From IMG/VR virus record IMGVR_UViG_2609459833_000005, positions 1 through 21,924 of that record: a stretch of 21,924 nucleotides of DNA. The stretch is one strand, 5' to 3'. A program made the translations under genes and the position numbers. The first letter of the stretch is position 1, and each line of letters opens with the position of its first letter. The DNA is from a virus (taxonomy: Duplodnaviria; Heunggongvirae; Uroviricota; Caudoviricetes). Below are positions 15,957 to 16,452 of the stretch, piece after piece. The notes under the pieces are model-generated. The model saw only the letters and a list, made by a program, of their open reading frames with translations, did no database searches and was not told the origin of the DNA.

Positions 15957-16200
15957 ATTCATTACGATATGGGAATTCCCATATCGGGTAAAAACGGTTT
16001 GCGGTAAAGCGAGAGTTAAGTAGAATTGCTGCGGGTGCTTGAGGCTGTCTGCCTCGGGCATGCCACCGTAAGGCAGACAGAGAAAAGCCCCAGTTAACAT
16101 TATGCGTCTTGCAGGACGCTTAACATTAATCTGAGGCCAATTTCATGCTAGTCACATGTAGGTTAGCCTCTTACACGCCGAAAGGCAAGGAGAAGCAGGC

Positions 16201-16357
16201 TATGAAGCAGCAAAAGGCGATGTTAGTCGCCCTGATCGTCATCTGTATTACCGTCATTGTGACGGCACTGGTAACGAGGAAAGACCTCTGCGAGGTACGA
16301 ATCCGAACCGGCCAGACGGAGGTCACTGTCTTCACAGCTTACGAACCTGAGGAGTAA
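16201..16357 (+). CDS. hok: Hok/Gef-family type I toxin (small membrane-depolarising peptide)
   Basis: 51-aa product MKQQKAMLVALIVICITVIVTALVTRKDLCEVRIRTGQTEVTVFTAYEPEE aligns with Hok (…[25 protein letters not shown]); SD aaggagaag upstream. The ORF track's longer 16145 start is an in-frame leader extension (mok-like). Confidence 0.85.
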
Positions 16358-16427
16358 GAGACCAGGCGGGGGAGAAATCCCTCGCCACCTCTGATGAGTC
16401 AGGCATCCTCAACGCACCCGCACTTAA

Positions 16428-16452
16428 CCCGCTTCGGCGGGGTTTGTTTTTT
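16428..16452 (+). terminator. Rho-independent terminator of the hok transcript
   Basis: cccgc-ttcg-gcggg hairpin followed by gtttgtttttt. Confidence 0.75.

Follow-up and report, generated by a model that had tools for sequence, protein, structure and literature searches.

The question raised by this locus is whether a small hok-like toxin gene, found in a DNA virus of the Caudoviricetes, belongs to a complete type I toxin-antitoxin module with its own antisense RNA, or is a fragment such as the relBE-fused hokD that Escherichia coli K-12 keeps in its Qin prophage. We analyzed the whole 21,924-nt stretch (positions 1 to 21,924 of the IMG/VR record IMGVR_UViG_2609459833_000005; hereafter the window), whose numbering is used throughout; the elements of the module lie on the plus strand unless stated otherwise. 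As far as sequence comparison and RNA folding can indicate, we put the probability at about 90% that the region is a complete, ordinary hok/sok toxin-antitoxin module of the hokD/hokW type in a lambda-like E. coli prophage. Neither the kind of system nor this member of it is new, and nearly identical copies exist in most E. coli genomes. Every defining hok/sok element that is open to sequence analysis is recognizable, and the interpretation is supported both by the presence of these elements and by the closest relatives, which are annotated as HokD or MokW or have been characterized experimentally as hokW-sokW. What is shown directly here are the elements in the sequence, how they are conserved and covary, and two alternative folds of the mRNA.

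Within the prophage, the module belongs to the nin region, where it is flanked by a DUF551 gene and a DUF968/ydfU-like gene; the gene order in the window is DUF551, hok, a 92-aa ORF, DUF968, RusA, and a DUF1133/Q-like gene. The prophage was classified as lambdoid from the surrounding gene content of the window, which also includes a DNA methylase, three tRNAs, STnc100, a repressor, a cro-like gene, and DicF (7335-7386, Rfam match). The hok gene is co-oriented with the early rightward genes, namely the cro-like gene and the replication genes through RusA and the Q-like gene. A type II module of the ParE/PaaA2 kind, not relBE, is encoded in the same prophage at 8827-9305, approximately 7 kb from hok. 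For comparison, 137 related loci were fetched from viral and genome collections, and 75 unique full-length copies, the window copy included, were aligned.

The toxin gene hok (16202-16357) starts with an ATG at 16202, ends with a stop codon at 16355-16357, and encodes a 51-aa HokD-type peptide, MKQQKAMLVALIVICITVIVTALVTRKDLCEVRIRTGQTEVTVFTAYEPEE. The peptide matched Pfam HOK_GEF (PF01848) over the whole 42-position model with 79.7 bits (E 1.2e-22; cutoff 22), which bears out the Hok/Gef identity and the 51-aa length given in the initial annotation, with the start corrected from 16201 to 16202. Its amino acid identity was 94% with K-12 HokD, 86% with HokW, and 41% with R1 Hok, and the columns invariant in the alignment with these three include T25, R26, K27, L29, C30, E31, R33, R35, G37, E40, V41, F44, Y47, and E48. 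The family features, a length of about 50 aa, an N-terminal transmembrane helix, and a TRK-LCE-R-R-G-EV-F-YE core, were all found. A Shine-Dalgarno (SD) sequence, AAGGAG (16187-16192), is positioned 9 nt ahead of the hok ATG. In frame with hok and 57 nt upstream of its ATG, a second ATG at 16145 opens the mok reading frame (16145-16357, 70 aa), which ends at the same stop codon; this is the in-frame upstream extension that had been described as mok-like. The mok frame has its own SD sequence, GAGG (16133-16136), 8 nt upstream of the ATG, and its start falls inside the Sok target region described below. The hok ORF was complete in all 75 unique relatives and the mok GAGG was unchanged in all of them, and an aligned in-frame mok ATG without stops was present in 68. 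The codon for Tyr47 lies in a TACG motif (16340-16343), the TadA A-to-I editing motif of hokC/D/E, and editing of hokD at the homologous Tyr has been reported (PMC5630033). A tRNA-Arg-like local hairpin around TACG was considered and discarded, as folding gave a z score of +0.85 and no stable hairpin.

A scan for consensus sigma-70 promoters returned no site on either strand. Both promoters of the module match the consensus weakly and fall below the scan thresholds, so we located them from homology with R1 and sokW together with positional conservation in the family; R1 hok/sok (parB) was compared through an R1-type IncFII plasmid locus. The putative hok promoter consists of a -35 hexamer TTGCGG (15999-16004), itself too weak for the consensus scan, a 16-nt spacer, and a -10 hexamer TAGAAT (16021-16026). 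The latter aligns with TATGAT of the R1-type locus, the hok -10 box of R1 as defined by mutation (PMC9841398), and the R1-type locus matches base for base around the promoter and the 5′ end. The predicted mok-hok mRNA would extend over 16033-16452 (about 420 nt), from a start at G16033 to the U tract of the terminator. G16033 is 7 nt past the -10 box, as in R1, and coincides with position 1 of a match to Rfam RF01794 (sok).

That match came from an Rfam scan, which the initial annotation had proposed as a check, and covered 16033-16207 on the plus strand with 117.6 bits (E 1.4e-26; gathering score 59) and all 157 model positions. Because it is on the plus strand and runs from the 5′ end of the hok mRNA to the hok AUG, it marks the hok leader and not the antisense RNA. 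Together with the covariation counts given below, it identifies a leader conserved in sequence and structure, and the earlier description of the leader as structured is upheld by this score and by the stability of the transcript fold (z -6.8). The 5′ end is formed by the tac element (16033-16044), which can pair with fbi or with ucb. It is followed by the leader hairpin (16045-16080), part of the tac stem-loop, which contains the 10-bp perfect inverted repeat noticed before; its arms are 16045-16054 and 16071-16080, so that the repeat begins at 16045 and not at 16046. These arms are the core of a 21-nt repeat (16034-16054/16071-16091) that is 76% complementary. Downstream are ucb, the upstream complementary box or anti-SD of mok (16085-16091), which is engaged in both folds; the Sok target hairpin (16139-16164), seen in the trimmed fold and the Rfam consensus, with a 7-nt loop CUAGUCA (16148-16154) and the mok AUG in its 5′ arm; and dcb, the downstream complementary box (16166-16170), which pairs with the mok SD region (16133-16137) in the open form and closes the target hairpin from underneath. 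The SD/dcb pairing is also part of the Rfam structure, and its pairs were kept in all 75 relatives. The 3′ part of the transcript comprises a 3′-UTR stem-loop (16346-16403), present in both folds and a presumptive road-block for 3′ trimming by analogy with R1 (PMC1635323), the fold-back inhibition element fbi (16407-16419), which pairs with tac in the full-length fold, and an intrinsic terminator (16428-16452). The terminator, which had been proposed earlier, was recovered by a terminator scan and has a stem CCCGC-UUCG-GCGGG (16428-16441) of five G-C pairs with a 4-nt loop, followed by the T/U tract GTTTGTTTTTT, likewise GTTTGTTTTT.

Folding of the 420-nt transcript (16033-16452) gave a minimum free energy (MFE) of -170 kcal/mol against -133 ± 5.4 kcal/mol for dinucleotide shuffles (z -6.8). 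In this full-length structure, tac (16033-16044) is paired with fbi (16407-16419) through 12 pairs, and the GCCCC of ucb (16087-16091) is paired with the mok SD region (16133-16137). An independent repeat search returned a 9-nt perfect inverted repeat at 16030-16038/16414-16422, 375 nt apart. When the RNA was trimmed at 16405, the MFE fold switched (z -5.5): tac (16033-16040) paired with ucb (16085-16091), the mok SD region paired with dcb, and the Sok target hairpin formed. A closed form (ucb/mok-SD) and an open form (tac/ucb and SD/dcb) are thus the predicted MFE structures of the full-length and the trimmed RNA, respectively, and these modeled conformations are the ones described for R1 hok mRNA (PMC9841398, PMC1635323). 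In R1, 39 nt are removed from hok mRNA in 3′ processing (PMC1635323); here, fbi and the terminator span approximately 44-46 nt downstream of the 16346-16403 stem-loop.

The antisense RNA had been expected on the minus strand, but its promoter and terminator could not be pinned down in the initial annotation. By homology and folding, a predicted sok gene can now be placed, with its promoter at 16188-16160 and its terminator at 16138-16083. The putative promoter, on the minus strand, comprises a -35 hexamer TTGCCT (16188-16183), a 17-nt spacer, and a -10 hexamer TAACCT (16165-16160) that agrees with TATAAT at only 3/6 positions. Neither hexamer differs in the hokW-sokW locus, where the sokW promoter was found to be functional by mutation, trans complementation partly restored growth, and the complementarity extends over 71 nt (PMC8621323). 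Given the position of TTGCCT-17-TAACCT, we infer that Sok starts near G16153, within about 5 nt, and the predicted RNA of about 71 nt would run along the minus strand from 16153 to 16083. In its fold, the first 15 nt stay unpaired as a 5′ tail, and 16138-16086 forms a terminator hairpin that runs into a U tract (16086-16083); the MFE is -27.6 kcal/mol (z -5.1; no shuffle was as stable). This hairpin was found by folding, and the length and interruptions of its stem probably explain why the terminator scan missed it. Predicted Sok is complementary to the loop of the target hairpin, the mok AUG, and the mok SD sequence, with the unpaired 5′ tail facing the target hairpin, and the sequence therefore provides a cis-encoded antisense gene, with predicted promoter and terminator, that overlaps the mok translation start. 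The arrangement recurs in the family: of 26 divergent hok loci, 19 have a TTGNNN-17/18-TANNNT pattern whose distance from the hok ATG is the same or nearly so, against a chance expectation of about 6% of such 80-nt stretches, and in most of the 19 the -35 hexamer begins exactly 14 nt before the hok ATG. The loci with this pattern include the R1-type plasmid (TTGCGC-17-TATCCT) and those of Photorhabdus, Kluyvera, Citrobacter, Pantoea, and Erwinia.

The alignment of the 75 copies supported the predicted structures by covariation. In the 5′ domain, taken in its open form, 89.8% of the alignment cells held standard pairs, compared with 28-46% when the 3′ partners were slid by 1-3 columns, and eight pairs showed compensatory changes, compared with one or two in the slid controls. 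The pair 16047/16078 was G-C in 17 and A-U in 53 of the 75 unique relatives, and compensatory changes were also found at 16053/16072 and at several pairs of the 16092-16132 stem. The 3′-UTR stem-loop showed both one-sided and compensatory changes. The tac/fbi pairs were kept in 73-75 of the 75 relatives with barely any variation; being nearly invariant, this pairing is uninformative within the subfamily, and support for it comes only from more distant members. There, a crude scan indicated that the 5′/3′ complementarity is kept with altered sequence, for example GGGCGCUUGAGA/UCUCAAGCGCCC in Photorhabdus. In this ungapped scan, only the Photorhabdus and Pantoea loci gave a clear signal, many others being no better than shuffles; since the scan is noisy once G-U pairs are allowed, it serves as illustration and not as statistics.

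Taken together with the work on homologues, the mechanism of this copy is very probably the canonical hok/sok one. For the transcription start sites, the 3′ processing, the RNase III cleavage, and the toxicity, we rely on homologues. A weak constitutive promoter would produce the mok-hok mRNA of about 420 nt from G16033, and in the full-length RNA the tac/fbi pairing, with ucb covering the mok ribosome-binding site, would keep the message stable but silent. Slow 3′ trimming to the 16346-16403 stem-loop, as deduced from R1, would remove fbi, after which the 5′ end could refold onto ucb, exposing the mok SD sequence and start and forming the target hairpin. Sok, an unstable RNA of about 71 nt made from the other strand (16153→16083), would bind the target hairpin through its unpaired 5′ tail and cover the mok SD sequence and AUG, so that translation of mok, and hence of the coupled hok, would be blocked; the Sok/mRNA duplex would presumably be cut by RNase III. 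Once the supply of Sok ended, the stored mRNA would be translated and the 51-aa Hok would damage the inner membrane.

Two readings compete with that of an intact module. It is very improbable that the 10-bp inverted repeat belongs to something other than a hok leader, such as a terminator of the upstream genes or a protein-binding site: although the repeat is perfect and lies close to where the upstream gene cluster ends, it begins 12 nt inside the transcript from 16033, matches Rfam helix 1, recurs in the R1-type leader, varies by compensatory changes, and is not followed by a U tract. A stand-alone terminator or operator was ruled out on the strength of the helix 1 match and the covariation. 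The locus might instead be a decayed or silent relic, outwardly intact yet unable to kill, for instance if Tyr47-to-Cys editing is needed or if translation is never released. The weak promoters would fit such a relic, but we judge it improbable, as the regulatory elements are intact and constrained (the mean pairwise difference per site among the 75 copies was 0.03 in the hok CDS and 0.005 at 16189-16204, from the SD sequence to the hok start), the ORF is complete in every relative aligned, HokD and 42 of 45 tested Hok homologues were toxic when expressed (bioRxiv 10.1101/2025.08.07.668861), and the 90%-identical hokW-sokW locus works as a toxin-antitoxin system from its own sok promoter (PMC8621323).

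If the module is intact, as we favor, two roles for the prophage come into consideration, each suggested by analogy and each held tentatively. The module may act in the lytic cycle, with Sok vanishing at induction and Hok then weakening the membrane, leading to faster lysis and more phage. For hokW-sokW of Sp5, a RecA-dependent loss of sokW RNA following mitomycin C, a rise in HokW, and a halving of phage release when the locus is absent have been reported (Takada et al. 2021, PMC8621323); moreover, since hok points in the same direction as the early rightward operon, read-through upon induction could run against sok transcription. The Sp5 evidence, however, concerns a single phage whose copy is situated elsewhere in the genome (attachment site/ea genes), and the effect was two-fold. 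It is also conceivable that the module acts in addiction, penalizing prophage loss or excision by post-segregational killing as hok/sok of plasmid R1 does. Post-segregational killing is the canonical function of the hok/sok family (PMC8621323, PMC9841398, PMC1635323), the homologue is called a phage maintenance protein in some phage records, and hok is approximately four-fold enriched in prophages (bioRxiv 10.1101/2025.08.07.668861), but some chromosomal hok loci (hokA, hokB, and hokC) reportedly could not mediate post-segregational killing (cited in the same preprint), and none of the chromosomal loci tested so far has given it. A phage-defense role of R1 hok/sok (T4 exclusion) was not reproduced in 2026 (PMC13047441).

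Among the closely related prophage copies, the region that would form the Sok 5′ tail and the target hairpin was by far the most variable part of the transcribed module. At 16139-16159, the mean pairwise difference among the 75 unique copies was 0.32 per site, compared with 0.06-0.12 in other leader elements, and 22 haplotypes were found at 16133-16172. The three copies in one Shigella flexneri genome differ from one another in this region, as do three in one E. coli genome. Such variability could be selected, giving each co-resident prophage a private Sok-hok pair and thereby an "addressing code" for type I modules, so that the Sok of one prophage could not rescue the cell from the loss or induction of another; we consider this rather unlikely. 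A plain alternative is relaxed constraint: the sequence of the Mok peptide could be immaterial, and, the antisense RNA being cis-encoded, any mutation would stay complementary.

Of 5426 complete E. coli genomes, 4719 contain similar DNA, which spans at least 80% of the query in 3944; the number of copies per genome has a median of two and a maximum of ten, and the gene is annotated as hokD. The locus was also present in 110 phage records under the names "MokW", "HokD toxin", "host killer protein", or "phage maintenance protein". The exact 51-aa protein occurs on at least 999 contigs as HokD, and the exact 70-aa product on 270 contigs. In a 2025-26 survey, Hok was found in almost 80% of available Enterobacteriaceae genomes (bioRxiv 10.1101/2025.08.07.668861). 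Identical loci carry only a hokD CDS annotation, with the Sok RNA gene left unannotated; the region deserves annotation as a complete hok/mok/sok module and has little importance beyond that, although the exact coordinates may be useful for work on the function of prophage hok/sok or on cross-talk among copies in pathogenic E. coli.

Compared with R1, the locus shares the 5′ end GG(C/G)(U)GCUUGAGGCU, the leader hairpin, ucb, the mok SD sequence, the target hairpin with the mok AUG, dcb, AAGGAG before hok, fbi, the terminator, and an antisense TTGNNN-17-TANNNT at the same position. The toxins are only 41% identical, and the replicon is a plasmid in R1 and a prophage here. The predicted Sok hairpin is 16 nt longer here than in R1, accounting for a Sok of about 71 nt compared with 64 nt. 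The mok and hok starts are 57 nt apart and in frame here, whereas those of R1, at 116 and 174, are 58 nt apart (PMC9841398), placing R1 mok and hok in different frames.

The hokW-sokW locus of Sakai prophage 5 and 933W-type Stx2 phages is much closer, with 90% nucleotide identity over 441 nt. The two share the 51-aa toxin length, the 70-aa in-frame mok, the hok -10 hexamer and 5′ end, tac, ucb, dcb, the hok SD sequence, fbi, the sok -35 and -10 hexamers, the 16-nt extension of the Sok hairpin, and a Sok of about 71 nt. They differ in the toxin (86% identical), whose C-terminus is VDYESEK in HokW and TAYEPEE here, and at several positions of the Sok 5′ tail/target, CCAATTTCATGCTAGTCAC here and CTCAATCCATGCTGAACAC in hokW-sokW. 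The homology with the Stx2 phage stops before the terminator hairpin, and hokW-sokW is located near the attachment site and ea genes, whereas the present locus is in the nin region.

The hokD gene (relF) of the cryptic K-12 prophage Qin occupies the same syntenic slot, upstream of the DUF968/ydfU gene, in the order dicF...relB-relE-hokD-rem-ydfU-ydfT, and the statement of the initial annotation that Qin has relBE-hokD at this position is accordingly sound. The accompanying statement, that relBE is missing here, also holds: no relBE was found beside hok among the window ORFs or by comparison with K-12, and where relB and relE directly replace the leader in K-12, a complete hok leader lies upstream of hok in the window. 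From the hok SD sequence (about 16188) through fbi and the terminator, K-12 hokD is 96% identical at the nucleotide level, and the toxin 94%. Nothing upstream of the hok SD sequence is retained in K-12: the hok promoter, tac, the leader hairpin, ucb, and the mok start are all missing, as are the -10 box, transcript, and terminator of sok. Their place is taken by relB-relE, with the 3′ end of relE lying upstream of the aligned part, so that hokD has become the third gene of the relBE operon. A relBE cassette was also sought in other loci that break at the K-12 point, but L025 and L016 break there without relBE; in L025, an IS element encoding a 362-aa transposase splits the leader. By this alignment, K-12 hokD is what remains, at the 3′ end, of a module that the window carries in full.

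The hok-type toxin locus recognized in the initial annotation was recovered by an Rfam scan for hok/sok elements, in which RF01794 matched the window at 16033-16207 (+), that is, in the hok mRNA leader. This model is labelled 'sok antitoxin', but what its consensus represents is the leader of the hok mRNA, on the sense strand, extending from its 5' end as far as the AUG of hok; matches therefore land on the toxin strand. The actual Sok corresponds to the middle portion of the RF01794 consensus, read as its reverse complement.

Among 75 unique close relatives (full-length copies, the window's own included), variability within the transcribed module peaked at 16139-16159 on both strands, corresponding to the 5' tail of Sok and the target hairpin of the hok mRNA. 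The per-site difference in this segment was 0.32, versus 0.03 for the coding sequence of hok, and 22 haplotypes of 16133-16172 were present in the same set of relatives. Copies sharing a single genome also carried different tail/target versions, as seen in one genome of S. flexneri and one of E. coli. The variability of 16139-16159 may constitute a specificity code; alternatively, it may reflect relaxed constraint.

Within the hok CDS, the sequence contains TACG at 16340-16343, formed by the Tyr47 codon TAC and the following G. TACG is the motif for A-to-I editing by TadA and is reported to recode the homologous Tyr of hokC, hokD, and hokE to Cys (PMC5630033). Folding predicted no local hairpin at this TACG.

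The DNA just upstream of hok carries a perfect 22-bp palindrome, CGATATGGGAA/TTCCCATATCG (15965-15986), with a central EcoRI site, separated by 13 nt from the downstream hok -35 element and not followed by a U tract. It was intact in 25 of the 141 fetched loci, where its spacing to hok was nearly unchanged. Two very small hydrophobic ORFs, encoding 27 aa (15733-15816, +) and about 34 aa (15852-15956, +), are located between the DUF551 gene and the hok promoter; neither had a family match, and the annotation of a 99.8% identical genome lists the latter as a hypothetical protein. The DUF551 gene (15353-15736) itself contains a perfect 33-bp tandem repeat (15435-15510, 2.3 copies), so that the peptide STNNFREISET is repeated about 2.3 times in its product.

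Elsewhere in the window, a ParE-family toxin gene (96 aa; PF05016, E 4e-18) was found directly downstream of two genes, one encoding an antitoxin of the PaaA2 type (63 aa; PF21217, E 2.9e-22) and the other an HTH_3 protein of 166 aa, all within 8827-9823 (-). The prophage therefore also has a type II module, which is not relBE; this three-gene HTH_3/PaaA2/ParE layout resembles the PaaR2-PaaA2-ParE2 module of O157 prophages. RNA genes comprised DicF sRNA (7335-7386, -; 62 bits), three tRNA genes (Met-CAU, Arg-UCG, and Arg-UCU; 20463-20714, +), and STnc100 sRNA (21543-21748, +; 143 bits), accessory RNAs typical of lambdoid/Stx-type prophages.

In one IMG/VR relative (L025), a 1.1-kb IS element (1392-2486), encoding a transposase of 362 aa on the opposite strand, interrupts the hok leader at the equivalent of window positions 16188-16193 (approximately). 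The BLAST matches flanking it share 6 nt of the query (positions 209-214), and the insertion point essentially coincides with the break of K-12 hokD homology beside relE. Stx2 converting phage I (L141) carries a hokW-sokW module (3001-3441) that is 90% identical to that of the window. In this 933W/Sp5-type phage, homology of hokW-sokW to the window ends just before the hok terminator hairpin, and the module is located close to the attachment site and the ea genes, whereas that of the window lies in the nin region; given this difference in position, the module has moved between prophage regions.
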